Origin: Acidobacteriota bacterium
Lineage (GTDB): Bacteria > Acidobacteriota > Polarisedimenticolia > Polarisedimenticolales > JAIQFR01
DNA length: 64,000 bases
Direction of reading: 5' to 3'
Assembly (NCBI GenBank): GCA_041494445.1
Contig: JBGQAU010000002.1
Coordinates: forward strand, 16,793 to 80,792
Within the stretch, counting starts at the first letter, position 1. Every line of letters begins with the position of its first letter. Below the pieces are notes generated by a model. That model saw only the letters and a list, made by a program, of their open reading frames with translations, made no database searches and was not told the DNA's origin. A program made the translations under genes and the position numbers. This document shows, one piece after another, positions 1,614 through 28,415 of this stretch.

Positions 1614-1859
1614 GTGAACCGCAAACTCGACCCCGTCTACCTGACAGAGGCGGAATTGGCCAGGCGGTGGTGTGCGTCGCGATCAACGATTCAGCGGCTC
1701 GCTCGCGCAGGTCAGCTTCCGCACTTCATCCGGCCGGCGCCGCCCGGCGGCCAGCCCCGCCGGCTTTACCGAATCGCTGATATCGAGGCGCTCGAGGCCG
1801 ACGGCTACCAGGACGCCGCGGCATTGGCGTTCCGGGCGCCGAGGAAGGGAAGGGGGTGA
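1614..1859 (+). CDS. excisionase / AlpA-like helix-turn-helix DNA-binding protein
   Basis: 81 aa with LTEAELARRWCASRSTIQRLARAGQLP (HTH-like). Sits directly upstream of the integrase. Confidence 0.6.
   Translation: MNRKLDPVYLTEAELARRWCASRSTIQRLARAGQLPHFIRPAPPGGQPRRLYRIADIEALEADGYQDAAALAFRAPRKGRG
1843..1856 (+). repeat. third, partial copy of the purine-rich core GGAAGGGAAGGGGG
   Basis: Same 14-nt core as in 1376..1389 and 1594..1607, 4 nt upstream of the integrase ATG at 1861. Confidence 0.85.
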
Positions 1860-1860
1860 C

Positions 1861-2988
1861 ATGGCCGTCTACAGTCGAGGGGAACAGTGCTGGATCGACT
1901 TCTACTATGCGGGCAAGCGGTACAGGCGACCCGCGGGCACGAACGGGAAGGAGGCTCGGAAGGCGCTCGACCGGATCAAGGGAGATATCGCGTCCGGCGA
2001 CTTCGATCCCGCGGACCTCGATCCACAGCCGGAGGAGCTCGGTGTGCTCTTCGAGAAGGCGCTCGACCTGTACATCGAGCACCGCGAGGCGCAGGGGAAG
2101 CAGCGGGCCTCGTATCTCTACCTGGACCGCCTGTGGCGCGAGGTGCTCAAGGGCCGGCCCGTCCGGGAGATCACGTCGGAGGAGATCGAGATGCACCTCT
2201 CGACGTGGGGCGAGGACCGAGACTGGGCACCGGCGACCAGGAACTCGACACTCATGCAGCTCTCCGGCTTCCTCTCGTACTGCTATGGCCGGCGGTGGAT
2301 TGAGAGTCACCCGACCGAGAAAGGGCGCGTGCCACTCCTGGCCGTGGACAACTGCCGCGAGCGGTGGCTTACTCTCGCGGAAATCGAGACGCTCATCGAG
2401 AAGGCGCCGGAGTACATGAAGCCGATGATCCGCTTCGCGTGCTGCACGGCGATGCGCCTCGGCGAAATCTGCACCTTGACCCGCGCCTCGTACCAGAAGG
2501 CCGAGGACGGGAAGCCCTACCTCGTGACCGAGCGGACCAAGAACGGCGAACGCCTCGTGTGGCCCCTGGAGGGATGGGCGAAAGAGTACGTCGAGGCCCG
2601 CGTCGATGATCTGCCGTTCCCGGGGTCGCACCTGTTCGCCGGGCCGGATGGCGAGGCCGCGAGGGAGGGGATACTCCGCGGCTTCCAGGCCGTCGTCGAG
2701 GCGGCCGGCTTCGAGTACGGGCGCACCCGGCAGGGGATCACGTTCCATTCCCTGCGGAGGACGGCCGCGACCCTGGCCCTCAACGCCGGAGTCCCGGAGC
2801 ACGTCGTGCAGAAACTCGGGAACTGGAAGGACCGCGGGATGGTCGCGTTGTACGCGAGGGTCTCGGACGTGACGCTCCGAGATGCCGCGGGAAAGCTCGC
2901 GGGGCTCATCGGCGGTAGTCACAAGGTGGTCACAATCGACCGAGAGGCGCGCGAAGCTGGCGCCGCGAGGATCGGCGCAAGTGCTTGA
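1861..2988 (+). CDS. tyrosine recombinase / phage-type integrase
   Basis: The N-terminal SAM-like region and the C-terminal catalytic region carry AMRLGEI (Arg), HSLRRTAAT (H-x-x-R) and a terminal LYARV Tyr. Adjacent to a tRNA. Confidence 0.9.
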   Translation: MAVYSRGEQCWIDFYYAGKRYRRPAGTNGKEARKALDRIKGDIASGDFDPADLDPQPEELGVLFEKALDLYIEHREAQGKQRASYLYLDRLWREVLKGRPVREITSEEIEMHLSTWGEDRDWAPATRNSTLMQLSGFLSYCYGRRWIESHPTEKGRVPLLAVDNCRERWLTLAEIETLIEKAPEYMKPMIRFACCTAMRLGEICTLTRASYQKAEDGKPYLVTERTKNGERLVWPLEGWAKEYVEARVDDLPFPGSHLFAGPDGEAAREGILRGFQAVVEAAGFEYGRTRQGITFHSLRRTAATLALNAGVPEHVVQKLGNWKDRGMVALYARVSDVTLRDAAGKLAGLIGGSHKVVTIDREAREAGAARIGASA

Positions 2989-2996
2989 TTCTCTTA

Positions 2997-3084
2997 TGGT
3001 GCCGAAGGCCGGACTCGAACCGGCACGGGCTTAGGCCCACTAGATCCTGAATCTAGCGCGTCTACCAAATTCCGCCACTTCGGC
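2997..3084 (-). tRNA. tRNA-Leu(CAG), class II with long variable arm, CCA encoded
   Basis: The reverse complement folds as acceptor GCCGAAG/CTTCGGC, anticodon stem CTAGA/TCTAG with loop TTCAGGA, T arm GCCGG-TTCGAGT-CCGGC, then ACCA. Confidence 0.9.
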
Positions 3085-6144: not shown

Positions 6145-9100
6145 ATGTACGTAAGAAAGGGAACGCTTCTCATGAAAACTCTTGTTAAGGGTGCGCTCGC
6201 GCTCGTCGTTCCCCTGCTGCTGGCCGGGGGGACTTCCTGGGCGGTCCCGCAGTATCTCGATGACGGAGCCTTGCAGAACGCTCAGGGAGGATGGAACCTG
6301 CCGGCGCAGGGCAGCTGCCCCGAGGCGAGCAGCGCGCTGACCCGGCCGGATTGCCTGGCGGTGCGGCTCACGTCGTATACCACGAGGGGGACCTGCGTGC
6401 CGACGGGCAACATCACCCGCAGCTGGAGCACGGGCGTCTGCAACGACACGGCTCACAACGCGGACCTGGCCACCTGCGAGAACACGTTACCTCTGGGCAG
6501 CCGGAAGTTCAGTGCCGGGAGCCCGAATGTCTGCGCCATCGTGATGAAGGGCGACGACAGGAACAAGGCCGTGTGTACGGCCGTGTACGGGGGCACCTGG
6601 GTCACGGCGGGAGCCTGCATCCCGGCCTGGGTGATGCCCGATCGAACCCAGTACACGCCGAACCTCTTCTCCGGCGCGCTTTCGGGCCCCTCCGGCCCGG
6701 GAGACCAGTGCCTCCGCTGCCACAACAGCGTCACCGAGTACAACGGTCCGAGGGTCAGGGACGTCGAGTGGTTCCTGCGGACCGGCCACAAGAACATGGC
6801 CAGGAAAGTGACGCCGGCCGCGGCTGGAGCGGGCCTGCCGTGGGCGGGCCCGGCCTACGCGTGCAGTCTGCCGGGCTTCAACGACATGACGAGCTGCGAG
6901 CTGCACGGCGGGACCTGGGATGCGGCACTGGTCACCTATCCTTCCGACGACAGCGCCGACCCGATCGATTGGCCGAACGGCAAGATCGGCTTCTGCAGCA
7001 ATACGGCTTACAAGACGCAGGCGACGTGCGTCGCCGCCGCCGGGACGTGGACCTGGTACACCCTGAAGTGGATCTATGGCGACTGGCTCAGCTCGCTGCC
7101 CAGGGCGATCTTCGCCGCGCCTCCCAGCTTCGGGAACGCGTCCTCGCCGAATACCTGCGTCGATCCGAGATCCGGGCTTTGCAGCCTCTCCCAGTACATC
7201 ACCCAGGCGACCTGCGAAGCCAATGCCGGCGTCTGGACTTCGAATGGCACCCAGGCGGGGTGCGAAACCAATAACGGCGCGGGCAGCTGGGTGGCGAAGC
7301 CGGGCGCCTCGTACTCCTGCGGGCGGTGCCACACCACCGGCTGGACCAGCGATTCCGTGGTCAACATCGCGAAGGAGCCCGAGAAGTCGTTTTCCGGCAT
7401 CGTTTGGAGTCGGCTGGGCGCTCCCACCGACGGCAAAGTGGACACCGCAGGGGCCGTCGCCGGCGATCCCAACAAGTCCTCCTCGTGGGACGTCTGGGGC
7501 ATCAGCTGCACCCGTTGCCACAACTCCGTGGTCGAGAACACGAGCGGAGTTTGCACTCCCCCCGGCACCGCCGCGGTGCAGTCGAGCCTCGTGACGCAGG
7601 CCCTCTGCGAGGCTGCCGGAGGCACGTGGAGCGCGGGCCCGCCCTATGCGGCGCCTGTCGGATTGTCGAGCCATCACAACGCGATGACGTCGGCCGACGC
7701 CTCCAGCGGAGGCTACTGCAGCGACATGACGCTCGGCAGCCTGACCAAGGAGCAGTGCGAATTCAAGGGCGGCACCTGGTACGCCGTGAATTGCAGCGAT
7801 CCGGTCTGGCCGTCGGCGCGACAGTGCCTGGACACCAGCGGCTGCAGCAATCACCTTTCGGTGTTCACCACGTCGGCGCTCTGCACGGGCGGCGTGTGCA
7901 GCGCCAACACCAGCTCGGCGACCTACGCGACGCCGGCAGATTGCGCGACGAACGGGGGCTTCTGGTACGAGCCCGGGACGTGCAGCAACCCGTTCTACTT
8001 CTCACAGGCCACGTGCACCGCCGCCGGCGGAGCCTGGGCGGCCAACACGTGGAACGCGAAGACCCCCGGAACCTGGAACGCCTCGTCGTGCAGCATCGGG
8101 GGCGGCACGTGCACGGCTCCGCAGTACGTCACCAGCGGCGACTGCACGGGTCACAGCGGAACGTGGAGCAGCAGCGGCAGCGGCTCCTGCTCGTTCCCCG
8201 CGTACACCACGCCGTCGGACTGCCAGTCGCATTCCGGCGCGTGGTCCGCCACCTGGAGCGACAACCTCCAGTGCATGGACGCGGGGGTCTGCAGTGACGT
8301 AACGAAGACGAACCAGATCGCGTGTCTGGCGGTGACTGGAAACACCTGGACCAACGGCAAATGGACCGGCACCAGGACCCGGCGAGGCCAGATGATCACG
8401 TCGGTCTGCATGAACTGCCACCGGCAGGAGACGGGCGGCAAGCCGTACGACAACGCCAGCGCCAACCCGGGGACGGAGGCCACGGTCAATCCGGGACTCT
8501 ATCTCAAGGCCGGGGCCGCCCACGGGACGTTCTCGTTCGTGAGCCACCCGCACGGCAACCAGTTCCTGAACAGCCCGCACGGGCAGTTCACCGGCACCTT
8601 CAACCAGATCGGAACCGCGACCTACGGCAACGGCTACGGCAGCTACTTCCAGAATGACGGCGAGGCGGCCAACACCGGCAACGGCTGCACCGGCTGCCAC
8701 GACGTGCACAAGAGCGTGGTGGAAGAAGCCTTCGAGCCGGCCCCCGGCCAAGAAGGCGCGATCAAGGAGGAGTGCACGGCCTGCCACAAGAAGAATCTGG
8801 CCGGGCTGCTGCACCCCGGCGGCGTGGGCACGCCGCTCGAGGAGATGGAGTCCGAGCCTGCCGACGCGTGCGTGAGCTGTCACATGCCCGACGGCATGCA
8901 CCTCTACCGGATCAAGGCGGATGCCGGGTACACCACGTTCCCGACGGCCGCGATCACGGCCACCACCGCGGCCCAGTGCACGGCCGCCGGCGGCACCTGG
9001 TCCAGCTCGAGCAGCAGCTGCACCGTCAACGCCAACATCTCGCCGGACGGCTCGTTCACGCGGGCGGTCTGGGTGGACATGGACCACGCGTGCGGCCAGT

Positions 9101-10287
9101 GCCACGGCGGCGGCACCGCGCAGGCGAGCACCACGGGCAGCACGAGCACCAGCACCGCGAGCGTCACCGTCACGACCTCCGCCGGCTTCCTGCCCGGCGA
9201 GAGAGTCAGGATTGCGGACGCCGGCGCCCTCGACTACGACGATCAGGGTCTCGGCAGGGGCGATCTCGACAGCTACATCGCCGCTGTGCCGGACGCCACG
9301 CACATCACTCTGGTCGCCAAGCCATCCTTGGCGGTCAGCGGAAAGAGCGTGGTGCAGAACCCCACCAAGAACGGCGCGGGCTACATGACCAGGACCCAAC
9401 TCGGCGCCCTCGCGGAAGGGATGCACAACGACCAGCCGAGCGTTTCGTTTGTCTATTCGCTCGGCAATCCCAACACGCAGGTCGTCAACCTGGACGCGTC
9501 GGCTTCGATGTGCAGCGGGAGCACCGCGGCCTGCGACGCATACGAGTGGGACTGCGGCTCCGACGGGACGCTTACGGCCCCGGCGTATCCGGAGAAGGCC
9601 ATCACCGCCACCTGCACGTACGCCACCGCGGGCACCAAGACGATCACCCTCACCGTGGAGCAGTACGGGGTGAACGGCGCCTCCACCAGCCGGCTCGTGA
9701 ACACGTACCCGTACGTTCCTGCGCCCGTGGTCGGGGGCACCTGCTCGTTCGGGGACGGGACCACCGAGAACACTTGGACCGCGACCGTCACCGACACCTC
9801 GACATCCGCTTCGAAGGTGACCGTGGGTTGGGGCGACAACACCCCGCTCACCAGCGACTTCACGAGCCCCTTCGGACCGTTCACGCACACCTACACGACC
9901 GCGGGCACCTACACGATCACCCACAAGGCGTACAACTCCAGGGGAGAGTCGAGCACCGAGACGTGCCAGGGGATCCTGGGGTACTTCCGGATCGCCGGCA
10001 CCGTGTTCAGGACCGGCGGGGTCCTGCCGGTGGCGTACGCGAGCGTCGAGGTGAAGCAGGGCGCAACCTTCACGGGATCGACCGTCAGAACGGTCATGAC
10101 GGCGGGGGACGGCACGTACACCATCGCGAACCTCAAGCCGGGTGCGTACAGTCTCCGCGCCCGTAAGAGCGGGTCCACGCTCACGTTCTCCGACGTGCTG
10201 AATGTCACGATCGGACCGAGCGGCACCGTCGACTTCACCGCGACAGGCGGGAGCAAGGCGGGAATGGGCAAGCCGTTGGCCCAGTAG
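6145..10287 (+). CDS. giant secreted multihaem cytochrome c (8 CXXCH) with Cys/Trp-rich repeats, two PKD-like modules and a carboxypeptidase-regulatory-like C-terminal domain
   Basis: SD GGGAGGAGG lies 9 nt upstream of ATG 6145 (alternative ATG at 6172). Signal peptide ...LLLAGGTSWA. Haem motifs are CLRCH, CGRCH, CTRCH, CMNCH, CTGCH, CTACH, CVSCH and CGQCH. PKD-like signatures are TYATAGTKTITLTV and HTYTTAGTYTITHKAYN. The C-terminus reads GTVF...DGTYTIANLKPGAYSLRA. Confidence 0.85.
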   Translation: MYVRKGTLLMKTLVKGALALVVPLLLAGGTSWAVPQYLDDGALQNAQGGWNLPAQGSCPEASSALTRPDCLAVRLTSYTTRGTCVPTGNITRSWSTGVCNDTAHNADLATCENTLPLGSRKFSAGSPNVCAIVMKGDDRNKAVCTAVYGGTWVTAGACIPAWVMPDRTQYTPNLFSGALSGPSGPGDQCLRCHNSVTEYNGPRVRDVEWFLRTGHKNMARKVTPAAAGAGLPWAGPAYACSLPGFNDMTSCELHGGTWDAALVTYPSDDSADPIDWPNGKIGFCSNTAYKTQATCVAAAGTWTWYTLKWIYGDWLSSLPRAIFAAPPSFGNASSPNTCVDPRSGLCSLSQYITQATCEANAGVWTSNGTQAGCETNNGAGSWVAKPGASYSCGRCHTTGWTSDSVVNIAKEPEKSFSGIVWSRLGAPTDGKVDTAGAVAGDPNKSSSWDVWGISCTRCHNSVVENTSGVCTPPGTAAVQSSLVTQALCEAAGGTWSAGPPYAAPVGLSSHHNAMTSADASSGGYCSDMTLGSLTKEQCEFKGGTWYAVNCSDPVWPSARQCLDTSGCSNHLSVFTTSALCTGGVCSANTSSATYATPADCATNGGFWYEPGTCSNPFYFSQATCTAAGGAWAANTWNAKTPGTWNASSCSIGGGTCTAPQYVTSGDCTGHSGTWSSSGSGSCSFPAYTTPSDCQSHSGAWSATWSDNLQCMDAGVCSDVTKTNQIACLAVTGNTWTNGKWTGTRTRRGQMITSVCMNCHRQETGGKPYDNASANPGTEATVNPGLYLKAGAAHGTFSFVSHPHGNQFLNSPHGQFTGTFNQIGTATYGNGYGSYFQNDGEAANTGNGCTGCHDVHKSVVEEAFEPAPGQEGAIKEECTACHKKNLAGLLHPGGVGTPLEEMESEPADACVSCHMPDGMHLYRIKADAGYTTFPTAAITATTAAQCTAAGGTWSSSSSSCTVNANISPDGSFTRAVWVDMDHACGQCHGGGTAQASTTGSTSTSTASVTVTTSAGFLPGERVRIADAGALDYDDQGLGRGDLDSYIAAVPDATHITLVAKPSLAVSGKSVVQNPTKNGAGYMTRTQLGALAEGMHNDQPSVSFVYSLGNPNTQVVNLDASASMCSGSTAACDAYEWDCGSDGTLTAPAYPEKAITATCTYATAGTKTITLTVEQYGVNGASTSRLVNTYPYVPAPVVGGTCSFGDGTTENTWTATVTDTSTSASKVTVGWGDNTPLTSDFTSPFGPFTHTYTTAGTYTITHKAYNSRGESSTETCQGILGYFRIAGTVFRTGGVLPVAYASVEVKQGATFTGSTVRTVMTAGDGTYTIANLKPGAYSLRARKSGSTLTFSDVLNVTIGPSGTVDFTATGGSKAGMGKPLAQ

Positions 10288-10351
10288 GCTTCCTGAACGG
10301 CCAAGAAGGGAATCCAAGAGAATGCGAACCCAGGAGATCCTCGGAGGAAAC

Positions 10352-11197
10352 ATGAAGAAGTTGACTCAAGGCGCGCTGATCGTCGCTCTTGGACTGTTCG
10401 CCGTGTCCTTCGCCTCGGCCTACACAGGAAACGCCGTGCCGGGCTCGGGAATCAACGGAACGGTCCACGATCTCAATCGAACGGACACGGGGATGGGCTA
10501 CACGGCAAATCCGGAGGATCCTCTCACCAGGATATGCATCTTCTGCCATGCCCCGCACCACACATACAGGCTGCTCCCGCAGAACGGCGGAAGCTTCACG
10601 GGTAGCGGTCCGACGGACCCGGCCCCGGACGTGTACGACTACCTGCCGCTGTGGAACCACGAGCTCACGATGAACTACACGCAGTACACGATGTACGTGA
10701 ACGGCGTCGGCGCCCCCACGATCGGCCCCAAGGCCTTGCAGGCCAGGGGCGACATGATCCCGGGAAGCGCCTCCCTGCTGTGCCTGAGCTGTCACGACGG
10801 AAGCGTTGCCGTCAACTCGTACGGCAATCCTTCTCAGGTGACGCCCACGAACCACTCGGTCAGCACCGGCAACAAGTTCATCGGGCAGACCTCGCCGTAC
10901 CTCATCGGCAAGGACAACTACCTCGGGAACCACCACCCCATCGGGTTCGACTACGACCAGGTGCAGGCCGGGGACAACGAGATCCGGCCCGCGGACGATG
11001 CCGACCTGGGTGGGGCCGGCAAGGTGCGGGATCACCTGTACGGTCCGGGGAACACGCGGATGGAGTGCGCGACCTGCCATGCCGTCCACAACAAGCAGAA
11101 CACGGGAGAAGCCCTGCTGTGGAGGAGTGATCAGGACAGCAGGCTCTGCCTCACCTGCCACGACAAGGGCACGAATCCGGGACCCACGATTCCGTAA
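10352..11197 (+). CDS. secreted tetrahaem cytochrome c (doubled-CXXCH type)
   Basis: SD GGAGG and signal peptide MKKLTQGALIVALGLFAVSFASA. Haem motifs are CIFCHAPH, CLSCHDG, CATCH and CLTCH. The N-terminal HDL...C-F-CH-PH...PLWN...CLSCHDG pattern is shared with the 16251 gene. Confidence 0.85.
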   Translation: MKKLTQGALIVALGLFAVSFASAYTGNAVPGSGINGTVHDLNRTDTGMGYTANPEDPLTRICIFCHAPHHTYRLLPQNGGSFTGSGPTDPAPDVYDYLPLWNHELTMNYTQYTMYVNGVGAPTIGPKALQARGDMIPGSASLLCLSCHDGSVAVNSYGNPSQVTPTNHSVSTGNKFIGQTSPYLIGKDNYLGNHHPIGFDYDQVQAGDNEIRPADDADLGGAGKVRDHLYGPGNTRMECATCHAVHNKQNTGEALLWRSDQDSRLCLTCHDKGTNPGPTIP

Positions 11198-11220
11198 CGC
11201 ACGATCGGTCGACGTTCGAC

Positions 11221-11260
11221 GAGAGGGGAATGGGAGCCATTCCCCTCTCGTCGTTCTTCC
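11221..11260 (+). terminator. candidate intrinsic terminator
   Basis: Perfect 13-bp stem GAGAGGGGAATGG/CCATTCCCCTCTC with a 3-nt loop, followed by the T-containing GTCGTTCTTCC. Lies 24 nt after the stop. Confidence 0.5.
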
Positions 11261-11416
11261 GCGGCTCCTCGCGCTCTCCCCCCGCGCCCGCGCGATGATA
11301 AGATGCGGCCTGCTTTCGGCTTTCCGGGATGGTCGGGTCCGTGGGGCACGGTCCTGATGGGACACGGAACGCTCTCCCCGCTTCGTGCTCGGGGTGTTCG
11401 CGGACGGGACGGGTCC

Positions 11417-12553
11417 ATGTCGAATGCTCTCAGGGGCATGGCTTGCGCCGCTCTGGCGCTCCTGGCGGCGGCGTGCGCCGCGCCCGTCAGGAAGAAGGAA
11501 GCCGGGGTGTTCTTCCCGCCCGCGCCCGAGCTTCCCCGGCTTCAATACCTGATCTCCTTCAGCGGCCTCAAGGACATCGAGCGGCAATCCGCGTTCGACC
11601 GTTTCGTGGTGGGCGAGACGCAGGACGTGAAGCTCGAGAAGCCTTACGGCGTCGCGGTCCACGAAGGGAAGATCTACGTTTGCGACACCAACGCGACGGT
11701 CGTCGTCTTCGACCTGGTGGGCAAGACCTTCCGGACCCTGAAGGGTGCGGTCGGCCCGGGAAAGCTGATCCAGCCGATCAACATCAGCATCGATGTCGAC
11801 GGCACCAAGTACGTGGCGGATCCGGTCCGCGGCCAGGTCGTGGCCTTCGACCGGAACGACGAGTACCTGAAGGCCTACGGGGCCCCCGGGGACTGGAAGC
11901 CCGTGGACGCGGTCCCGTTCGAGGACAGGCTCTACGTCGCCGACGTCGAGCACGGGATGGTCAAGGTCTTCGACAAGGGCAGCGGGGAGTCGCTCAAGAC
12001 CATCGGCGCCACGGGGGAGCCTTCCGAGCGGCTCGACCGCCCGACGAATCTGGCTTTCGACCGGGAGGGCTACCTCTACGTCACGGACGCCGGAAGATTC
12101 CAGGTGGTCAAGTTCGACCGGGATGGTCACTTCAAGTCGACGTTCGGGAAGGTCGGGGACAACCTGGGACACTTCGCGAGACCCAAGGGGATCGCTCTCG
12201 ATCGGGAAGGCCGCCTCTACGCGGTGGACGCCTCCTTCAACAACGTGCAGATCTTCAATAAGGATGGGCGGCTCCTGATGTTCTTCGGGGAGAGCGGGGA
12301 CAAGCCGGGTGGCTTCCTGCTGCCCGCGAAAGTCGCGATCGACTACGACAACCTGCAGTACTTCAAGGGCTACGTCGAACCCGACTTCCAGCCGGACTAC
12401 CTGGTTTTCGTGACAAGCCAGTTCGGAAGCCGCCTGGTCAACGTCCTGGCGTACGGGCGGGCCAAGGGGAAGAAGTATCCGACCGATGCGGAGATCCTGA
12501 AGTTGTTCGAGGAGCGGCGGAAGACGGAGCTTGAGAAACTGCAGAAGCAGTGA
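11417..12553 (+). CDS. NHL-repeat beta-propeller lipoprotein 1
   Basis: Lipobox LLAAAC. Repeated motifs such as YGVAVHEGKIYVCD, PINISIDVDGTKYVAD, PTNLAFDREGYLYVTD and [16 protein letters not shown] are typical of NHL blades. Confidence 0.85.
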   Translation: MSNALRGMACAALALLAAACAAPVRKKEAGVFFPPAPELPRLQYLISFSGLKDIERQSAFDRFVVGETQDVKLEKPYGVAVHEGKIYVCDTNATVVVFDLVGKTFRTLKGAVGPGKLIQPINISIDVDGTKYVADPVRGQVVAFDRNDEYLKAYGAPGDWKPVDAVPFEDRLYVADVEHGMVKVFDKGSGESLKTIGATGEPSERLDRPTNLAFDREGYLYVTDAGRFQVVKFDRDGHFKSTFGKVGDNLGHFARPKGIALDREGRLYAVDASFNNVQIFNKDGRLLMFFGESGDKPGGFLLPAKVAIDYDNLQYFKGYVEPDFQPDYLVFVTSQFGSRLVNVLAYGRAKGKKYPTDAEILKLFEERRKTELEKLQKQ

Positions 12554-12590
12554 GCCGCGGGGGAGCGCTGCCATCGCCGGCCGGGAGTCG

Positions 12591-13127
12591 ATGAAGGCGT
12601 GGATGATCGTGGTGTGCGTCTCGGTCGTCGCCGCGCAGTCCATGGGCTGCGGCGCGGCGGAGCGCCGCAGGGTCCTCACGTTCCTGTTCGACGGGGTGCC
12701 GCCGCCCAAGGCGGCCGAGGCGCCGGACGCCGGACAGCAGGAGATCCGGCCGGACGCCGGCCGGTCGAGAGACGTTGGCTACAGGGAACATGGCCCCTAC
12801 GCGGCGAGACAGTGCGGTGCGTGCCACCAGCCGGGAGCTGCCAACGCCCTCGTGGCGCCGAAAGAGAGTCTCTGTCTCCGGTGCCACGAGATCAAGCTGG
12901 ACAAGAAGTACGTCCACGGTCCCCTCGCCTCGGGCGGTTGCCTGTCGTGCCACGACCCCCATAGCTCCCAGTACCGCTACCTCCTCGTGTCCGAGTCCGA
13001 TGGCTTCTGCGTGAATTGCCACGACCCACAGGCGATCGCACGGATCGCCGCGCACGGAGGGTCCCAGGAGAACTGCACGACGTGTCATGACGCCCACCTG
13101 TCCGACACGAAGTACCTGCTGAAATAG
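12591..13127 (+). CDS. pentahaem c-type cytochrome lipoprotein (c7/c3-like modules)
   Basis: Lipobox AQSMGC. Haem motifs are CGACH, CLRCH, CLSCHDPH, CVNCH and CTTCHDAH. Confidence 0.85.
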   Translation: MKAWMIVVCVSVVAAQSMGCGAAERRRVLTFLFDGVPPPKAAEAPDAGQQEIRPDAGRSRDVGYREHGPYAARQCGACHQPGAANALVAPKESLCLRCHEIKLDKKYVHGPLASGGCLSCHDPHSSQYRYLLVSESDGFCVNCHDPQAIARIAAHGGSQENCTTCHDAHLSDTKYLLK

Positions 13128-13142
13128 GAACGGAGACCCGGC

Positions 13143-15176
13143 TTGCGCCCCAAGGCCATCCTCGTTCTCCTGGCGGTCGCGGGCTCCGCACTCTCCCTGA
13201 CCCTCGCCGACCTGAGCGTCTTCGTTCCGAAGTCGGTCGGAAGCGGCGCGTACCTCGATCTGTTCGGCTCGTTCGAGGAAGACGACAGCCGCAGCAGCTC
13301 GCGAACGTTCGGGTGGACCGACACCTTCGTCAAGGAGAAGCTCACTCTCTACTCGAACGGCTACCTCTATCACCCGCGTTTCCTGCAGTACCGGCTCTCC
13401 GTCGCCGGGGCCCTCAAACAGGAGAAGTACCAGCCCTCCTACTATGACAGGCCCCTGGGATGGCAGCGAGCCTCGGGCATCGAGTACGACGGAAAGCTCC
13501 TGTTCCTGGCCGACCATCCCTACACCCTGGAGTTGTTCGCCTCCCGCTACGAGCCCCTCTTCAAGGACGAAGCGGCGACGCGGCACAACAGCGTCGCGAC
13601 CCGGCAGGGCGGTCTCTTCCGGTACCGCAGGAGACCGTACCTGTTCCGGGCCGACTTCTCCAAAGGCACCAACCGGTCGGCCTCGTCGTACTCCGAGGTC
13701 ACCCGGTTCGGCGTGGACGGCGAGTATCTCAAGCAATACAGGAACGGAAACCAGTTCTCCCTGCGCGCCGGTTACACCCCCTCGCGGTTCGCCAGCTCCT
13801 CGGGAGTGGAGGGTCATTCTACGGAATCGCTCTTCAGCAGCTTCGTGGACCTGCAGCGGGCGCGGTTGGAGTCTGGCGTGACCAGAAACTCGCGCGATCA
13901 GGAGGACCGGGTGTCGGGGAGGTTCGAGAGCGACCAGTTCGCATGGTACGAGCGTCTGAGCGCGTACCTGCCGCTGAACCTGAGGAGCGACATCTCCTAC
14001 CGCTATCAGAACAACGAGAACACGTTCCCCGGCGAGGATGCTTCGGGCCGCCACAAGCTGTCGGACATCGGCAAGGACCTTGAACTCAATATCGATCACA
14101 GGCTCTACCAGAGCCTGGTCTCCCGATACACCTTCTTCGATAGATCGAGGGAGTCCTCGGGTGGCGATTCGTCGTTCACGTCCCACGCCCTGGCCTTCGA
14201 CTACAACAAGACGATTCCGCGGGGCAAGATCCTGGCGGCGTTGAGCTTCTCCCGGGGCGACTCGGACAACCGGGGCCGCGCGGACGTCGTGGACGAGCTG
14301 CACGCGGCAGCTGTCGGTGGGGCGTTCAGCCTCGGCCGGCAGAACGTGGAGCCGCTGAGCCTGGTCGTCTTCCTCAAGTCGCCCCTGCCGCCGTTCCAGA
14401 CGGTTCGCCTGGAGAAGAACGTTGACTACGTGGTGGCGCCGCTCCTGAACACGCTCGAGATCAGCGTGCTCCGTGTGCCGCCGGAATTCGAGGTGGCGGG
14501 GACGACGGACTACGACTTCCTGGTCTCCTATTCCCTCACCACCGACCGGTTCGAGCTCCGGACCGAAACGGTCGCGCACAGCGCGAGCGTCGAGCTGCTC
14601 GACAACCAGCTGACCCCGTACTACAGCTACGTGGCGGTCCGATCCACGACGCTCTCCGGGGTCCTCCCGGGCGGCCCTCTCGACTCCACGACCTACACGA
14701 CGGGCCTTAGATTCCAGAGCGGGCCGCTGCGAGGGCTGGGGGAATTTCAGTACCTGAAATGGGACGTCAGTCCCTACAGGGCCTGGAGGGTAGAGGTCCA
14801 GTACGTCGGCCCGCTGAACCCGACCACCACCGTCTACGGGACCGTGTCGTACCTGAATAAGCGGTATCCCCAAGGCACGTCCCTGCAGCTGCGCGAGGCC
14901 TACACGGACGAGAGGGAGTCCGTCACCGGCAGCCTCCGGAAGCAGCTCTCTCCGCGGGGTCTGATGCTGTCCGCGGGGGGTTCCGTTTCGCGATGGCAGG
15001 GGCGGATCCGTAGCGACGCCTACGCGCTGAACTCCTCCTTGGACTGGAAGATCGGGAAGCTGGCGCTCAGCGCCGGCGCGAGCGCGTACCTGTCCCAAAC
15101 GGAGGACGGCGTCATCCTGTCGAACCGGCGCTTCCATCAGTACTATTACGTGAGCGCCCGGAGAGAGCTGTTCTAG
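13143..15176 (+). CDS. predicted outer-membrane beta-barrel protein (candidate porin of a porin-cytochrome complex)
   Basis: Signal-peptide-like N-terminus. Alternating hydrophobic/polar strand pattern rich in Y, R, S and G throughout. C-terminal ...YYYVSARRELF ends in Phe. The start is a TTG with GGAG 6 nt upstream, so it is uncertain. Confidence 0.65.
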   Translation: MRPKAILVLLAVAGSALSLTLADLSVFVPKSVGSGAYLDLFGSFEEDDSRSSSRTFGWTDTFVKEKLTLYSNGYLYHPRFLQYRLSVAGALKQEKYQPSYYDRPLGWQRASGIEYDGKLLFLADHPYTLELFASRYEPLFKDEAATRHNSVATRQGGLFRYRRRPYLFRADFSKGTNRSASSYSEVTRFGVDGEYLKQYRNGNQFSLRAGYTPSRFASSSGVEGHSTESLFSSFVDLQRARLESGVTRNSRDQEDRVSGRFESDQFAWYERLSAYLPLNLRSDISYRYQNNENTFPGEDASGRHKLSDIGKDLELNIDHRLYQSLVSRYTFFDRSRESSGGDSSFTSHALAFDYNKTIPRGKILAALSFSRGDSDNRGRADVVDELHAAAVGGAFSLGRQNVEPLSLVVFLKSPLPPFQTVRLEKNVDYVVAPLLNTLEISVLRVPPEFEVAGTTDYDFLVSYSLTTDRFELRTETVAHSASVELLDNQLTPYYSYVAVRSTTLSGVLPGGPLDSTTYTTGLRFQSGPLRGLGEFQYLKWDVSPYRAWRVEVQYVGPLNPTTTVYGTVSYLNKRYPQGTSLQLREAYTDERESVTGSLRKQLSPRGLMLSAGGSVSRWQGRIRSDAYALNSSLDWKIGKLALSAGASAYLSQTEDGVILSNRRFHQYYYVSARRELF

Positions 15177-15199
15177 GGGGCCGAAAGGAGAGCGCCAGG

Positions 15200-16270
15200 G
15201 TGAGCACGCTCGGTGGGAAAGGCGGGGGCAGGAGAAGGACCGCGGTCCTGCTCGGCCTCGTCTCGCTGCTCTCGGGATGCGTCTCGAGGTGGACGCTCCG
15301 CACGGAGCAGCCGGCCCTCGCCCTCCAGTGGCCGTACCAGCCGATGAAGGCGAAGCTCACCTACCTCCGGTCGTTGACCGGTTTCGCGAAGCAGCAGGGC
15401 GCCGCCTCGACGTTCAAGGCCTTCGTCTACGGGGGCGAGAGCGAGGACCGGAACGCCTTCGTCCTGCCGGTGGCGGTGGCGACCGGGGCCGACGGTCGCA
15501 TCGCGGTCGCCGACATGGGGCGCAGGTGCGTTCACCTCTACGTTCCCGGTGAGCAAACCTACGTCCGGATCGACGGCTCGAAAGGGGAGAAGATCCGGTC
15601 GCCCGTCGCGGTCGTCTTCGACGACGAGCTGAGGCTCTACCTCTCCGACTCGGCGGGGAAGGTATTCGCGTTCGGCCGGCAGGGCGAGTTCCTCTTCACG
15701 CTGGAGAAGGCCGGCGAGGAAGTCCTCCGGCGGCCGACCGGTCTCGCGTACAGCCCCGGCCGAAAGCTGCTCTACGTCGTGGACACCCTCGCGAACAGGG
15801 TCCACGCCTTCAGCAAGAGCGGGGAAGTCGTCTTCTCCTTCGGCCGGCGAGGGGAGGAGGCGGGCAGCTTCAACTTCCCGACGCACATCTTCCGGTCCTC
15901 CGCGGGAGATCTCTACATCACGAACTCGCTCGACTTCCGGATCGAGATCTTCGACGAGACGGGAAAGCACCTCGGGTCCTTTGGCCATCACGGCGACGGC
16001 TCCGGGGACCTGGCGATGCCCAAGGGGCTGGCCGTGGACAAGGACGGCGTGGTCTACGTCGCCGACAGCATCTTCGACAACGTGCAGCTCTTCAACCGGC
16101 GAGGGGATTTTCTCCTGACTCTCGGCAGTAGAGGCGCGGACTTCGGCGAGTTCTGGCTCCCCTCCGGAGTCTTCATCAGTGAAAACGACGAACTGTACGT
16201 CTGTGACACCTACAATCGGCGCATACAGGTGTTTCGGATCACGGAGCGGTATGCTGAAGAATCGTCCTGA
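15200..16270 (+). CDS. NHL-repeat beta-propeller lipoprotein 2 (paralogue of 11417..12553)
   Basis: Lipobox LLSGC. NHL blades include PVAVATGADGRIAVAD, PTGLAYSPGRKLLYVVD, PKGLAVDKDGVVYVAD and LPSGVFISENDELYVCD. Confidence 0.85.
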   Translation: MSTLGGKGGGRRRTAVLLGLVSLLSGCVSRWTLRTEQPALALQWPYQPMKAKLTYLRSLTGFAKQQGAASTFKAFVYGGESEDRNAFVLPVAVATGADGRIAVADMGRRCVHLYVPGEQTYVRIDGSKGEKIRSPVAVVFDDELRLYLSDSAGKVFAFGRQGEFLFTLEKAGEEVLRRPTGLAYSPGRKLLYVVDTLANRVHAFSKSGEVVFSFGRRGEEAGSFNFPTHIFRSSAGDLYITNSLDFRIEIFDETGKHLGSFGHHGDGSGDLAMPKGLAVDKDGVVYVADSIFDNVQLFNRRGDFLLTLGSRGADFGEFWLPSGVFISENDELYVCDTYNRRIQVFRITERYAEESS

Positions 16271-18107
16271 TCCCGGCCCGCCCCGCTGGCGGGTCCTGGT
16301 CGGCGCCCTATGTCTGCTCGGCTCCGGGCTCGGGCCCGGCCCCTCGGCGCAGACGGCGGCGAACATCGCCAACACGAAGCACGACCTCTCGGTGTCGGGC
16401 GCGGGACCGATCCGGTCGCTGACGGAGACCCGGGTCTGCGTCTTCTGCCACACGCCCCACAACGGAATGCCGCTCTCGCCGCTCTGGAACAAGGAGCTCG
16501 AGCCGCAGGTCTACCAGGTTTACACGAGCCCGACTCTCAGGGCGGGCCCGCTTCCCCAGCCCACCGGCCCGACGAAACTGTGCCTGAGCTGCCATGACGG
16601 CACGATCGCCATGGGAGCGGTCCTCAATCCTGCCGGGGGAATCCTCATGGCGGGCGGCGACACGCTGCCCCCGGGGAGCCTCTCCGATTTCGGCCTCGAC
16701 CTGTCGGGGCACCACCCGGTCTCGTTCATGTACTCGAATTCGCTGCCCAACGAGGAGCTTCAGCCGTCGCCCCCCTCGGATCTCGTCTTCGGCGGCACGG
16801 ACGAGGTCCACTGCATCACGTGCCACGATCCGCACAGCGACGTTTACGGCAAGTTCCTGGCGAAGGACAATCGCTACTCGGCGCTCTGCACCAGCTGCCA
16901 CCTGATCGCGGGGTGGAGCGGGTCGGCCCACGCCACCTCGACGGCATCGGTGGCCGGCATCCTGCCCCGGCCCCCCAAGACGTGGCCGACGTGGACGCAG
17001 CTGAACGAGTGGGGGTGTGAGACGTGCCACACGCCCCATTTCGCCCCGACCGCGCAAGGCCTGCTGAATTTCACCGCCTTGCCGCCGTCCCCGTTCTCCT
17101 GCACCTCCGACGGATGTCACGTGTCGCAGCCGCCCTCGCCTCACGCCCTGACCGCCTCGGACGTCGGGGTGCCTGGCAGGACGGGGGTTCGCTCCGTGGC
17201 CGGGCGGGTGGACATCGGCGGTCAGACGCGGAAGATCTCCGCGCACCACGAGGATCCCGGCATGAACCCGTCGGGGCTTCGGAGACCGGGACAACCTTCC
17301 CGGCCCGGTGCCGGCGGCGTAGGCTGCTCGGATTGCCACAATCCTCACGTCGCCAACTCCCGGGAAGCCACCGCACCCTATGCCTCAGGCATGCTGCAGG
17401 GGGTGAGCGGCGTCGACAGAAACGGCGCGGATGTCCCCGCGGCGACCTACCAGTACGAGGTCTGCTTCAAGTGCCACGGCGACTACAATCCGGACGTGGA
17501 GTACGTTCCCCGCTTCCTCGGCGGCACGAACACGCGACTGGTGTTCGATCCCGGGAACCCCTCGTTCCACCCGGTCGTGGGCATGGGGAGGAACCCGAAC
17601 GTCCCCAGCATCCCGTCGTCCTTCGAGCCCACCATGAGCCCATCGGACGTGATCTATTGCACGGCCTGTCACGCCGACGACGGGGGAGTCTCGAGCGGGC
17701 CGCACGGGTCGTCCTTCGCGCCGATCCTGAAGGCGCGCTACGAGACCGCGGACAACACGCCGGAGAGCTACGAGAGCTACGCTCTCTGCTACCGCTGCCA
17801 CGACAGGTCCAGCATCCTGAGCGACGTGAGCTTCCGGAAGACGGGGATCCCCACGACGCCTTCGGGCGGAGGCCACAGCGGGCATCTCGCGGCAGGCGCG
17901 CCGTGCTCCGCGTGTCACGACGCGCACGGCGTGTACGAAACCGACGCGACGGGGACGGGATCCCACACGCATCTCATCGACTTCGACAAGCGGATCGTCT
18001 TGCCGAGGGGCGGCGCGTACCCGGTTTACAACGACGCGGGGGCGGGCTCAGGAAGCTGCAATCTCGTCTGTCACGGCAAGGAACACGACAACTGGTCCTA
18101 CCCCTGA
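16251..18107 (+). CDS. multihaem cytochrome c (10 CXXCH plus CX4CH and CX3CH variants)
   Basis: ATG 16251 overlaps the previous gene by 20 nt. Signal peptide. Canonical motifs are CVFCHTPH, CLSCHDG, CITCHDPH, CTSCH, CETCHTPH, CSDCHNPH, CFKCH, CTACH, CYRCH and CSACHDAH. Variants are CTSDGCH and CNLVCH. Confidence 0.85.
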   Translation: MLKNRPDPGPPRWRVLVGALCLLGSGLGPGPSAQTAANIANTKHDLSVSGAGPIRSLTETRVCVFCHTPHNGMPLSPLWNKELEPQVYQVYTSPTLRAGPLPQPTGPTKLCLSCHDGTIAMGAVLNPAGGILMAGGDTLPPGSLSDFGLDLSGHHPVSFMYSNSLPNEELQPSPPSDLVFGGTDEVHCITCHDPHSDVYGKFLAKDNRYSALCTSCHLIAGWSGSAHATSTASVAGILPRPPKTWPTWTQLNEWGCETCHTPHFAPTAQGLLNFTALPPSPFSCTSDGCHVSQPPSPHALTASDVGVPGRTGVRSVAGRVDIGGQTRKISAHHEDPGMNPSGLRRPGQPSRPGAGGVGCSDCHNPHVANSREATAPYASGMLQGVSGVDRNGADVPAATYQYEVCFKCHGDYNPDVEYVPRFLGGTNTRLVFDPGNPSFHPVVGMGRNPNVPSIPSSFEPTMSPSDVIYCTACHADDGGVSSGPHGSSFAPILKARYETADNTPESYESYALCYRCHDRSSILSDVSFRKTGIPTTPSGGGHSGHLAAGAPCSACHDAHGVYETDATGTGSHTHLIDFDKRIVLPRGGAYPVYNDAGAGSGSCNLVCHGKEHDNWSYP

Positions 18108-19438
18108 TCCCTTTGCCGCCCCTCGGCCTTTCCGGCGGGCTTCGGTGCCTCGGGCTTCCGGCCGGGGGTCACTCGATCGTAGTAGGAAGGCCTGTGACAC
18201 CCCGGGGAGCACCCTCCGCCGGTCTCGGTCTTCACGAACTTCAGGGGAAGGCTCCATTTCCCGAACGGGACGGCCTTCGCCATGAGCTTCGGCAGGTCGC
18301 CGCCGTGGATCTCGTGGCACAGCTTGCAGCTTCGCCCCTTCTGCCGGTTGTTCACGTGCAGATAGTGGAGGTTCCTCTCCCCGTCCCTGAAGTTCGTGGC
18401 GAAGGAAGTGTCCGGATACTGAACCAGATCCCGCTTGTGACAGCCGAAGCACAATGCGAACTCCGTGTCGGTGTACGGGACATAGACATCGGCAGGGAAT
18501 TCCTTCACCAGGAGCTTCGGGTACGGGCCGCCGTGGGGGTCGTGGCAGGGAGTGCACCTGCCGTCCTGGATGGGGCCGTGGAGCATCGTCATGCTCTTCG
18601 CAATGACGCCGCCGTGGCAGCCCAGGCAGGTCTCCTTCTCCGGCTTCAGCAGTAGCTTCCCCTGGTCGCTGGCGTGGGGGGAATGGCAGTTGGCGCAGCC
18701 TTTTCCGTCCTTCACGGCGACATGGGCGACCGGGGCCTTCTCGACCTTCCCCGCGATCTCCTCATGGCACTTGAAGCAGACTCGGGCGCCTTCCTCGGAC
18801 AGCAGCTTCGGGTGCGCGGCACCGTGCGGGTCGTGACACGAGGTGCAGCCGCTCGCCATCGCCGGATGCACGTCGGGCTTTTTCAACAGGTCCTGGATGC
18901 CGAGATGGCAGCCGGTGCACACCGCGTCTCCCTCCCTCAGCAGGAGCGCCTTCGTGTCAGATTCATGAGGGGTGTGGCAGGCCGTGCAGTCCCCGGCGGA
19001 GACGGGGCCGTGGAGGAACTTGAAGGCGACCCGGTCCGAATGACAGGACTCGCACAGGTCCTTGAGCGGCTGCGACAGGAGCTTCGGCTGGTCCCCGGCG
19101 TGAGGGTCGTGGCAGGTCGTGCACGATCCTTCCTTCACGGGCTCGTGGACGTGGCTCTTCTTCCCGAACGCGTCATGACAGTCGTCGCAGAGCCCGGGCG
19201 GCGTCTTGGTGAGCTTGAACGTCTTCGTGCCTTTCTGAGGATGCGGCGTCGCCACGGACTCGTGACAACTGTCGCAGGACTCCGTGACGGGGTGGACGAC
19301 CTTGTGCTTGAGCAGCGTCTCGTGGCACGAAGCGGAGACGCACCCTTCCTGGGCCGCGGCGTCGGAGCAGGCGACCCCCAGGCCGACCGTCACGAGCGGG
19401 GTGAGCAGGAGAGTCAAGAGAAGCCGTTTCTTTCCCAT
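18098..19438 (-). CDS. multihaem cytochrome c lipoprotein (13 CXXCH plus 2 variants) built from repeated c7-like units
   Basis: Lipobox LGVAC. Reiterated unit C-x2-CH ... (V/L)H-P ... C-x2-CH-(D/T/S)-PH ... PKLL. Canonical motifs are CDSCH, CDDCH, CTTCH, CESCH, CTACH, CTGCH, CTSCH, CFKCH, CANCH, CLGCH, CTPCH, CFGCH and CKLCH. Variants are CVSASCH and CSPGCH. Confidence 0.9.
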   Translation of the reverse strand: MGKKRLLLTLLLTPLVTVGLGVACSDAAAQEGCVSASCHETLLKHKVVHPVTESCDSCHESVATPHPQKGTKTFKLTKTPPGLCDDCHDAFGKKSHVHEPVKEGSCTTCHDPHAGDQPKLLSQPLKDLCESCHSDRVAFKFLHGPVSAGDCTACHTPHESDTKALLLREGDAVCTGCHLGIQDLLKKPDVHPAMASGCTSCHDPHGAAHPKLLSEEGARVCFKCHEEIAGKVEKAPVAHVAVKDGKGCANCHSPHASDQGKLLLKPEKETCLGCHGGVIAKSMTMLHGPIQDGRCTPCHDPHGGPYPKLLVKEFPADVYVPYTDTEFALCFGCHKRDLVQYPDTSFATNFRDGERNLHYLHVNNRQKGRSCKLCHEIHGGDLPKLMAKAVPFGKWSLPLKFVKTETGGGCSPGCHRPSYYDRVTPGRKPEAPKPAGKAEGRQRDQG

Positions 19439-25376: not shown

Positions 25377-25400
25377 GGCGGGCCGCGATGGCGGCCCGCC
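25377..25400 (+). terminator. candidate terminator hairpin after maeB
   Basis: Perfect 10-bp GC stem GGCGGGCCGC/GCGGCCCGCC with loop GATG, 26 nt after the stop. The downstream T-tract is weak (ACCGTGCCGTTTC). Confidence 0.45.
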
Positions 25401-25630
25401 ACCGTGCCGTTTCACGACCCCCGAGAGATCCGGGTTGCGCCATTTCCCGCAGCGATGCGGTGAATCGAGGGAGGCGCCTCGCGCGACGGACGGCCGGCGC
25501 GCGGGAATCGGACGCCAGGAGGGCGTCCCGGGTTCCCGGGAATCCGAGTACGGTGGCGCGTAGATTGCAAAATCGACGCCTCCCTTCGAGGGGAGGAGGC
25601 GGGGGCTTCCGCCCGAGACGAGACACGAGA

Positions 25631-28390: not shown

Positions 28391-28415
28391 CCCGACGAGG
28401 CGGAGAGGGACGATC

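Follow-up and report, generated by a model that had tools for sequence, protein, structure and literature searches.

Why should two β-propeller lipoproteins stand on either side of a large outer-membrane β-barrel in a cluster of multihaem cytochrome genes? The question is raised by a cassette in a 64,000-nucleotide stretch of an Acidobacteriota genome (contig JBGQAU010000002.1; the whole stretch is called the window), the exact sequence of which is on record in the metagenome-assembled genome (MAG) GCA_041479655.1. Four consecutive genes on the forward strand lie at its centre: NHL1, a lipoprotein propeller of 378 residues with the lipobox LLAAAC (11417-12553); a pentahaem lipoprotein of 178 residues with the lipobox QSMGC (12591-13127); the barrel, of 677 residues (13143-15176); and NHL2, a second lipoprotein propeller, of 356 residues with the lipobox LLSGC (15200-16270). 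This order, the strand, the coordinates and the propeller lengths agree with a preliminary description of the locus, which took the two NHL proteins for paralogues of about six blades each and considered incidental linkage less likely than a role around the barrel. Comparison across genomes shows that the propellers are anciently duplicated, position-specific members of the cassette. Judged from sequence and gene context, they would be non-redox, outer-membrane-anchored docking or positioning subunits around the barrel, a reading given a probability of about 0.5.

Both proteins match the Pfam NHL family (NHL2 at an expectation value, E, of 9e-21) and DUF5128, a six-bladed propeller model. A sequence search with NHL1 finds NHL domains in the PDB at E 6e-37. 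The AlphaFold2 model of NHL1, with a predicted local distance difference test score (pLDDT) of 87.8, has six four-stranded blades, the last of which (blade 6) is completed by the N-terminal strand 42-48. At its C terminus the model has a β-hairpin and then a long helix (357-377), and NHL2 is without the helix. The best Foldseek matches of the model are NHL domains with target-normalised template modelling (TM) scores of 0.80-0.85, and the top match is 6XG7. In a pairwise alignment NHL1 and NHL2 share 33% identity over 293 residues (E 2e-34), including a proline-rich, family-specific N-terminal segment outside the generic NHL repeats. Thus the proposed paralogy is confirmed, and so is the count of about six blades, by Pfam and by the NHL1 model; NHL2 is inferred to be a six-bladed propeller through its homology to NHL1.

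The lipid anchors are a conserved feature. In essentially all orthologues examined, those of Geomonas included, NHL1, NHL2 and the pentahaem protein keep their lipobox cysteines, and the two propeller lipoboxes of the preliminary description are upheld by this conservation. NHL2 orthologues in addition carry an aromatic residue, mostly Trp, about four residues past the lipidated cysteine and often followed by Arg, giving the pattern C-x-x-x-W-x-x-R (window 15278-15300). The aromatic residue is not present in NHL1 orthologues. The pattern may be a sorting or barrel-contact motif.

Linkage was followed in two directions. An alignment of barrel homologues was used alone as the query, with one genome per species, making a test that is independent of the propellers. 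It gave 33 loci from Acidobacteriota (Thermoanaerobaculia and Terriglobia), Binatia, Nitrospirota and one MAG labelled Margulisiibacteriota. The reverse search started from NHL1 and took in four close homologues and six distinct loci of distant relatives (40-48% identity). In the barrel-found loci the order was read by tblastn with all window proteins, as far as the contigs extend. The barrel-found loci all have the same order, 33 of 33: tetrahaem cytochrome, NHL1, pentahaem lipoprotein, barrel, NHL2 and a cytochrome of the window's 618-residue type, with a large cytochrome at the head where present. The 618-residue type lies directly 3' of NHL2 in every locus that reaches far enough, and outside Nitrospirota a cytochrome of a 446-residue type comes after it in the barrel-found loci. 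All ten distinct NHL1-found loci also hold the cassette, and among their hosts Geomonas paludis (cassette at about 1,248,000-1,262,000 of CP096574.1), Geobacter sp. AOG2 and Malonomonas rubra DSM 5091 are cultured. The pentahaem gene is missing between NHL1 and the barrel in two distant cassettes (L044:10313-12958, where the barrel has 881 residues, and L045:9001-12212). The invariant core is therefore an OmcE-like gene (the tetrahaem cytochrome), NHL1, the barrel, NHL2 and a cytochrome of about 600 residues.

Position and paralogue go together. The upstream propeller is always of the NHL1 type and the downstream one always of the NHL2 type, without exception. Identity between the types is 22-36.5%, and the medians within types are 64% for NHL1 and 56% for NHL2. 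The type identities and the fixed positions together place the duplication before the cassette came to be distributed over different phyla. NHL repeats abound, with 72,317 cluster representatives matching NHL1 at E ≤0.001, and generic NHL genes could be imagined to have come by accident to lie beside a porin-cytochrome cluster. Chance linkage is ruled out because the synteny has no exceptions among either the barrel-found or the NHL1-found loci; moreover, paralogue type equals position, and both propellers carry the family-specific N-terminal motif. The earlier judgement on incidental linkage is in this way borne out in 33 of 33 and 10 of 10 loci, and the co-occurrence check found NHL genes absent from no homologous cluster.

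The junctions within the cassette are tight. The barrel gene meets or overlaps NHL2 in three loci (L040, L045 and L046), and NHL2 shares 20 nucleotides with the following cytochrome gene in the window and in L041, and four in L044 and L045. Only one locus, L032 from the Terriglobia MAG MFD02979.bin.1.14, has the window's flanking genes, and it is the nearest such genome. Since the flanking genes are common to L032 alone, the cassette is a self-contained module. A comparison of window 3123-25351 with L032 gave 72-88% identity in the flanks (RNase R, RtcB, a c3 cytochrome, a response regulator, a CBS protein and malic enzyme) versus 40-72% in the cassette, the barrel being 43% identical. Either divergence is much faster in the cassette than in its flanks, or recombination at the same site has replaced the cassette.

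NHL1 is among the best conserved proteins of the module. In the barrel-found loci, NHL1 orthologues are 56-79% identical to the window protein, the maximum for the cassette, versus 29-54% for the barrel and 31-50% for the large PKD cytochrome. Mean pairwise identity over 20 complete loci is 0.62 for NHL1, level with the cytochromes, and 0.42 for the barrel. Comparison of the window with Geomonas still gives about 40% identity for the propellers, at a distance where BLAST can no longer align the barrels. Because these two barrels give no collinear alignment, the barrel is a poor long-range marker. The propellers, recognisable at a distance where the barrel fails, are good metagenome markers for such cassettes. 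NHL1 has more than 3,000 homologues, and upwards of 100 syntenic cassettes can now be identified.

Alignments of 38 NHL1 and 39 NHL2 sequences show where this conservation lies. Positions conserved at 95% or more belong mostly to the blade motif that the NHL repeats share, as its Gly, Pro, Asp, Tyr, Val and Phe residues. Outside the blade motif no conserved His, Cys, Asp or Met is common to the NHL1 and NHL2 sequences aligned, and Geomonas has other residues in place of His238 and His252, the candidate ligands. An enzyme or a metal or cofactor binder of the lactonase-, arylesterase- or PAL-like kind, handling a shuttle or iron, is brought to mind by weak Pfam matches to SGL (gluconolactonase) and Arylesterase, by an NCBIfam match to ScyF far under its cut-off, and by Joint Genome Institute (JGI) names such as 'sugar lactone lactonase YvrE'. 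What these matches reflect is the fold or the repeat, and their scores are close to the family thresholds or under them. With the invariant residues mostly in the blade motif, the two histidines lost and no cluster of Cys, His or Met common to NHL1 and NHL2, the enzyme or metal-site idea was rejected and is rated highly improbable. Even conservation, invariants mostly in the blade motif and the loss of the histidines argue against an enzyme and for constraint over the whole surface. Face-specific conservation was also tried as a guide to an interface and was uninformative, the loops of the top and bottom faces being conserved alike at 0.67-0.72.

The same figures bear on a location at the cell surface, where the propellers would be exposed lipoproteins for adhesion or for binding a substrate such as a mineral, humic material or particulate organic matter. 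NHL top faces often bind ligands, as in structures among the Foldseek matches, and the propellers DFE_0451, DFE_0452 and DFE_0463 of D. ferrophilus were detected among its extracellular proteins (PMC8322314). This explanation is nevertheless regarded as unlikely. Those parts of the cassette that are exposed at the surface evolve far faster than the propellers, as the identities of NHL1, barrel and PKD cytochrome given above indicate, and neither propeller face is preferentially conserved or variable. In L046 (9001-12634; one MAG) the NHL1 orthologue has an added Pro/Glu-rich linker and three Cds6_C NTF2-like domains, and the pentahaem lipoprotein encoded next to it has one copy of the same domain. 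The Cds6_C domain is known from periplasmic proteins of the L,D-transpeptidase type. Its presence in this NHL1 would hint at a periplasmic location, and the domain common to the two neighbours suggests that NHL1 and the pentahaem protein share a location or a partner.

The cytochromes of the cassette show what the propellers accompany. The tetrahaem cytochrome (10352-11197; 281 residues, Sec signal, four CxxCH motifs) aligns over nearly its full length, in two stretches, with OmcE of G. sulfurreducens (7tfs_A, E 4e-13), and likewise with the filament entry 9yuq (9yuq_N). The four CxxCH motifs line up with those of OmcE, as do the HDL, PH, HP and VH histidines, and the four haems are kept in orthologues. 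By its sequence the protein is a candidate filament (nanowire) subunit. The gene after NHL2 (16251-18107) encodes a 618-residue cytochrome with 10 CxxCH and two variant motifs. Its N-terminal domain (residues ~31-217, window 16341-16901) is also OmcE-like, and the match is stronger than for the stand-alone tetrahaem protein (7tfs_A, E 1e-23; 9yuq_N, E 2e-22). The protein also has a region that resembles domains II/IV of MtrC/MtrF (Pfam). The OmcE-like domain could be the base or initiator subunit of an OmcE-like filament, a component that, according to the OmcE preprint, was not found in OmcE operons (bioRxiv 10.1101/2025.10.22.684050).

Two further cytochromes stand at the ends. The last gene, and the only one of the cassette on the reverse strand (18098-19438), encodes a periplasmic DmsE/MtrA-like cytochrome of 446 residues with 13 CxxCH motifs (Pfam Paired_CXXCH_1, E 9e-69; NCBIfam DmsE at 130 bits, under the cut-off of 192). 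It is a candidate for the cytochrome that sits inside the barrel. Its assignment as a fourth lipoprotein was considered, as a cysteine follows the signal peptide of the window protein, and was dropped, as the orthologues carry ordinary Sec signals. The first gene (6172-10287) encodes a secreted protein of 1371 residues with eight CxxCH motifs and PKD and CarboxypepD_reg domains (Pfam). Most loci have an orthologue of this PKD cytochrome adjoining the cassette, on the upstream side where the locus was found through the barrel and on the downstream side in Desulfuromonadia. The protein probably ends the pathway at the cell surface.

The pentahaem lipoprotein matches Pfam Paired_CXXCH_1, and its five CxxCH motifs are present in 36 of 36 orthologues. 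The barrel has no Pfam or NCBIfam match. Its AlphaFold2 model (pLDDT 87.1) has about 28 long strands, and the C-terminal residue is Phe. Foldseek finds only generic large barrels at TM ≤0.37, including MtrB (6r2q_B, TM 0.37); with the fold matches generic, all below TM 0.4, and no family match, homology to MtrB was set aside. A well-conserved β-domain of about 85 residues (residues ~380-465, window 14280-14537) is inserted after strand 17. Strand parity in the model places it in an extracellular loop, and it is a possible docking site for surface cytochromes. A propeller plugging the barrel, as LptE does in LptD, was also considered and rejected on size, the propeller being an estimated ~45-50 Å wide versus a lumen of ~40 Å for 28 strands.

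The subunit gene is set apart from the genes that follow by a hairpin. A perfect hairpin with a 17-bp stem (11217-11253, forward strand) starts 20 nucleotides past the stop codon of the tetrahaem gene. In nearly every locus a strong hairpin, most often followed by a T-rich tail, occupies the same site (orthologous positions in L006-L043). The stem motif GGGGAATG...CATTCCCC is kept in 14 distinct loci of Acidobacteriota, Binatia and Nitrospirota, and the arrangement GGGGAATG-loop-CATTCCCC occurs once per locus and nowhere else in the 0.78 Mb of sequence fetched. The hairpin belongs to no Rfam family, a search giving sub-threshold chance matches only, and a generic terminator scan missed it in the window, where its tail is poor in T. 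It is probably a terminator or attenuator between the subunit gene and the NHL1-to-NHL2 genes that sets the ratio of subunit to machinery. In pilin operons an attenuator lets the subunit exceed the machinery genes.

How would the propellers act in such an assembly? In the proposed arrangement, NHL1 and NHL2 would carry no redox cofactor and would be lipid-anchored in the outer membrane beside the ~28-strand barrel. NHL1 would pair with the pentahaem lipoprotein of the neighbouring gene, and NHL2 with the 618-residue cytochrome that bears the OmcE-like N-terminal domain. Across the membrane, the assembly would keep the 13-haem MtrA-like cytochrome in register with the pentahaem lipoprotein and with the extracellular cytochromes of the OmcE-like kind, and the base of an OmcE-like filament would be held on the barrel. 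A docking, scaffold or chaperone role fits because the lipid anchors are conserved, the junctions are tight, conservation is high and a conserved catalytic site is absent.

Several observations weigh against this arrangement. The two pairings come from gene adjacency alone, and two distant cassettes do without the pentahaem gene. The uniform conservation of the propellers indicates no interface. The extracellular detection of the three D. ferrophilus propellers (PMC8322314) also counts here, as does the occurrence in some cassettes of peptidyl-prolyl isomerase (PPIase) genes, which suit biogenesis as well as structure. By analogy, the roles reported for products of the osc operon of G. sulfurreducens by Shen et al. 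2025 (Cell Chem Biol; as cited in PMC13194489) (OscD in the morphology of the OmcS filament, OscEFG in secretion, OscH in folding) mean that the propellers may have a function more specific than that of a scaffold.

The last two observations lead to the main rival, in which the propellers are transient biogenesis or secretion factors that fold the OmcE-like cytochromes, export them through the barrel or polymerise them. SurA-like PPIase genes (SurA_N and Rotamase_2 domains; one with a lipobox) lie inside or beside five cassettes. In Nitrospirota and Desulfobacteraceae they separate the barrel gene from NHL2; in Geomonas and L046 they adjoin the cassette (L037:11268-12272, L036:11408-12595, L044:13045-14055, L046:17701-18672 and L039:5125-6132). 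An FKBP-type PPIase gene is upstream in L043, and the window cassette is without a PPIase. Sets of a PPIase and a propeller recur in other multihaem clusters (PMC5539420; Uet), the barrel of OmcE clusters has been proposed to serve secretion or as an anchor and likened to chaperone-usher systems (bioRxiv 10.1101/2025.10.22.684050), and the osc proposals just cited point the same way. The terminator-like hairpin past the subunit gene, too, recalls pilin-type operons with the subunit in excess over its machinery. On the other side, two position-specific, permanently lipid-anchored paralogues whose separation predates the divergence of at least four phyla look more like fixed subunits than general chaperones, and the junction overlaps with the barrel and 618-residue cytochrome genes suggest stoichiometric co-production. 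The computed data fit transient and stable association alike. Transient factors are possible, and are rated less likely than docking subunits.

A further model, tentative and rather unlikely, can be put forward. The barrel and both propellers would form an usher-like platform that exports, nucleates and anchors an OmcE-type filament. NHL2 would hold the 618-residue cytochrome, with its OmcE-like N-terminal domain as the filament base or initiator, and NHL1 with the pentahaem protein would be the periplasmic point of electron entry. If true, the model would answer how nanowires are mounted, started and wired, questions listed as unanswered in the OmcE preprint (bioRxiv 10.1101/2025.10.22.684050), and would extend nanowire machinery to the abundant Acidobacteriota and Binatia of soil and peat.

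The propellers bear on a wider problem. The assembly, anchoring and periplasmic wiring of cytochrome filaments and conduits are open questions, and propeller lipoproteins are the least understood of the recurring parts. The cultured hosts with a full cassette open propeller function to genetics, and D. soudanensis is a further tractable carrier. Filaments in Acidobacteriota and Binatia, if they exist, would mean long-range extracellular electron transfer in bacteria that are very abundant in soil and peat.

The surroundings of the cassette hold other features. The window has a G+C content of about 68%, and reading frames with high G+C at third codon positions mark the real genes. The cassette is flanked by the genes for RNase R and RtcB, and its genes are co-directional except the last. 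Upstream of RNase R, a gene for a phage-type integrase (1672-2988) borders on one for tRNA-Leu(CAG) (2997-3084, reverse strand). This stretch (1672-3084) may be the edge of an integrated element, with the cassette lying beyond RNase R. Further on, at 25388-29654, a multihaem cytochrome of 1000 residues with a weak C-terminal match to the cytochrome b family Ni_hydr_CYTB is followed by a multihaem cytochrome of 412 residues, and a relative is found near the cassette in L010. The 1000-residue protein, which we take to resemble CbcL, is a candidate inner-membrane quinol oxidase supplying the outer-membrane cassette.

Five loci from unrelated hosts (L041:1-3042, L043:1-2490, L046:1-6281, L047:4624-6174 and L048:2714-4156) have genes for response regulators of the sigma-54 activator type immediately 5' of the cassette, and three of the five also have HAMP histidine kinases. 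The window has no such activator immediately upstream. The recurrence suggests a conserved sigma-54-dependent control of the cassette. In a Nitrospirota cassette, a gene for a 23S rRNA intervening-sequence protein (PF05635) stands between the barrel and PPIase genes (L036:11027-11404).

Among known systems, the outer-membrane conduits of the MtrCAB, Pcc and Ext types share with the window a periplasmic multihaem cytochrome, a large barrel and lipoprotein or extracellular cytochromes. Small pentahaem lipoproteins are likewise used by the Ext clusters of Geobacter. Those conduits, however, have no propeller subunits, and the preliminary description was right that NHL propellers stand outside the Mtr and Pcc models. 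The markers of MtrCAB are also lacking in the window cassette: the barrel has no match to MtrB_PioB (PF11854), no lipoprotein of the OmcA/MtrC family is present and the DmsE score is below its cut-off. The ~28 strands of the barrel compare with 26 in MtrB, a count quoted from bioRxiv 10.64898/2026.05.27.727921.

The Uet/Occ clusters of Tenderiales, Gallionella and 'Ca. Dechloromonas occultata', compared by description, come closer. They have two NHL proteins (UetH and UetI), a predicted 28-strand barrel (UetC), a tetrahaem cytochrome (UetA) and an extracellular cytochrome of about 11 haems (UetJ), and Uet also has a PPIase (UetB). In contrast to the window, however, the genes follow another order, the two NHL genes are adjacent and do not bracket the barrel, and seven blades are predicted for one Uet propeller. 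Uet further includes three c7-type trihaem cytochromes and a cupredoxin (UetD, E, F and G), whereas no gene for a trihaem c7, a cupredoxin or a PPIase was found within 6172-19438.

Propellers are also known beside multihaem genes of other kinds. The partner bacteria of anaerobic methanotrophic archaea (ANME) have a core set of a six-bladed propeller, a 16-haem and a 26-haem cytochrome and a PPIase (PMC5539420). In D. ferrophilus, NHL lipoproteins lie among the multihaem genes DFE_0448-0465 (PMC5815863, PMC8322314, PMC9769857), and it was suggested that NHL proteins 'may ... stabilize the OMC complex' (PMC5815863). As in the window, NHL lipoproteins there accompany cytochromes, with which they are co-expressed, and a pentahaem lipoprotein and a PPIase are nearby (PMC5539420, PMC5815863, PMC8322314). 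These systems, again compared by description, differ in their 16- and 26-haem cytochromes and in that no barrel is named in the original description. An NHL propeller beside multihaem genes is known from Dethiobacter as well (PMC10376724).

The osc operon of G. sulfurreducens resembles the window cassette in its plan. By the published description, a filament cytochrome gene is followed by a propeller-like gene, the channel-like OscEFG and OscH, a chaperone with a PPIase (PMC13194489). An NHL gene, GSU2505, lies next to omcS (PMC9070056); in our own reading GSU2505 is OscD. The subunits differ, however, osc having the hexahaem OmcS and the window an OmcE-like tetrahaem protein, and the window is without the PPIase. 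In a PDB sequence search, the two OmcE-like cytochromes of the window matched OmcE-type chains only and gave no OmcS match.

The EET1 cluster of peat Terriglobia is nearer still. Its 'Porin-NHL-CytC' core is expressed, and its propeller was named a scaffold (bioRxiv 10.64898/2026.05.27.727921, supplement). The genes encode an MtrB-like porin, an NHL propeller that has DUF5128 and is closest to 6XG7 in the PDB, and a cytochrome that is OmcE-like and carries about 13 haem motifs (bioRxiv 10.64898/2026.05.27.727921). Matched by description, these three consecutive genes correspond to the barrel, NHL2 and the 618-residue cytochrome of the window (13143-18107). The likeness extends to the DUF5128 match, to 6XG7 as the top fold for NHL1, the paralogue that was modelled, and to MtrB among the fold matches of the barrel. 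Differences are that the preprint has a core of three genes and a propeller secreted through Sec and signal peptidase I (SPI), whereas the window propeller is a lipoprotein. The preprint mentions no second propeller, pentahaem lipoprotein, lipidation or OmcE-like tetrahaem gene, nor a spread to Binatia, Nitrospirota and Desulfuromonadia.

The closest counterpart is the OmcE cluster itself. Its minimal form consists of the OmcE subunit, two β-propeller lipoproteins, a large β-barrel and two multihaem cytochromes, and the barrel and propeller lipoprotein are markers of nanowire-type OmcE homologues (bioRxiv 10.1101/2025.10.22.684050). The window has each of these parts: the OmcE-family tetrahaem cytochrome, two propeller lipoproteins, the ~28-strand barrel and the 618- and 446-residue cytochromes. 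The core order is shared with Geomonas paludis, Geobacter sp. AOG2 and Malonomonas rubra, all Desulfuromonadia. The Geomonas proteins, the barrel excepted, are 32-42% identical to those of the window, and the OmcE-like genes of the Desulfuromonadia carriers match 9yuq and 7tfs at 1e-11 to 1e-22. There are differences too. The present hosts include Acidobacteriota (Terriglobia-like) and Binatia, phyla that are not listed in bioRxiv 10.1101/2025.10.22.684050, and the window adds the pentahaem lipoprotein and the upstream PKD cytochrome, which the preprint may possibly have counted. No block of glycosylation genes was seen beside the window cassette. Filament structures are known for OmcE (7TFS, 9YUQ), and the window protein is a candidate filament subunit.

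The propeller pair with a large barrel is thus already listed as a hallmark of OmcE-type clusters in recent preprints, and the window cassette, like those of the other Acidobacteriota and of Binatia, is a further example. Neither this hallmark nor the OmcE-like nature of the tetrahaem cytochrome was recognised in the preliminary description. The rule that the paralogue goes with the position, the conserved lipidation, the unification of two cluster descriptions and the cultured carriers are useful additions. All those features that define the OmcE-type cluster or EET1 and could be tested are present in the window cassette. The EET1 cluster and the OmcE cluster of Desulfuromonadia are one family, a link that is drawn in neither preprint.

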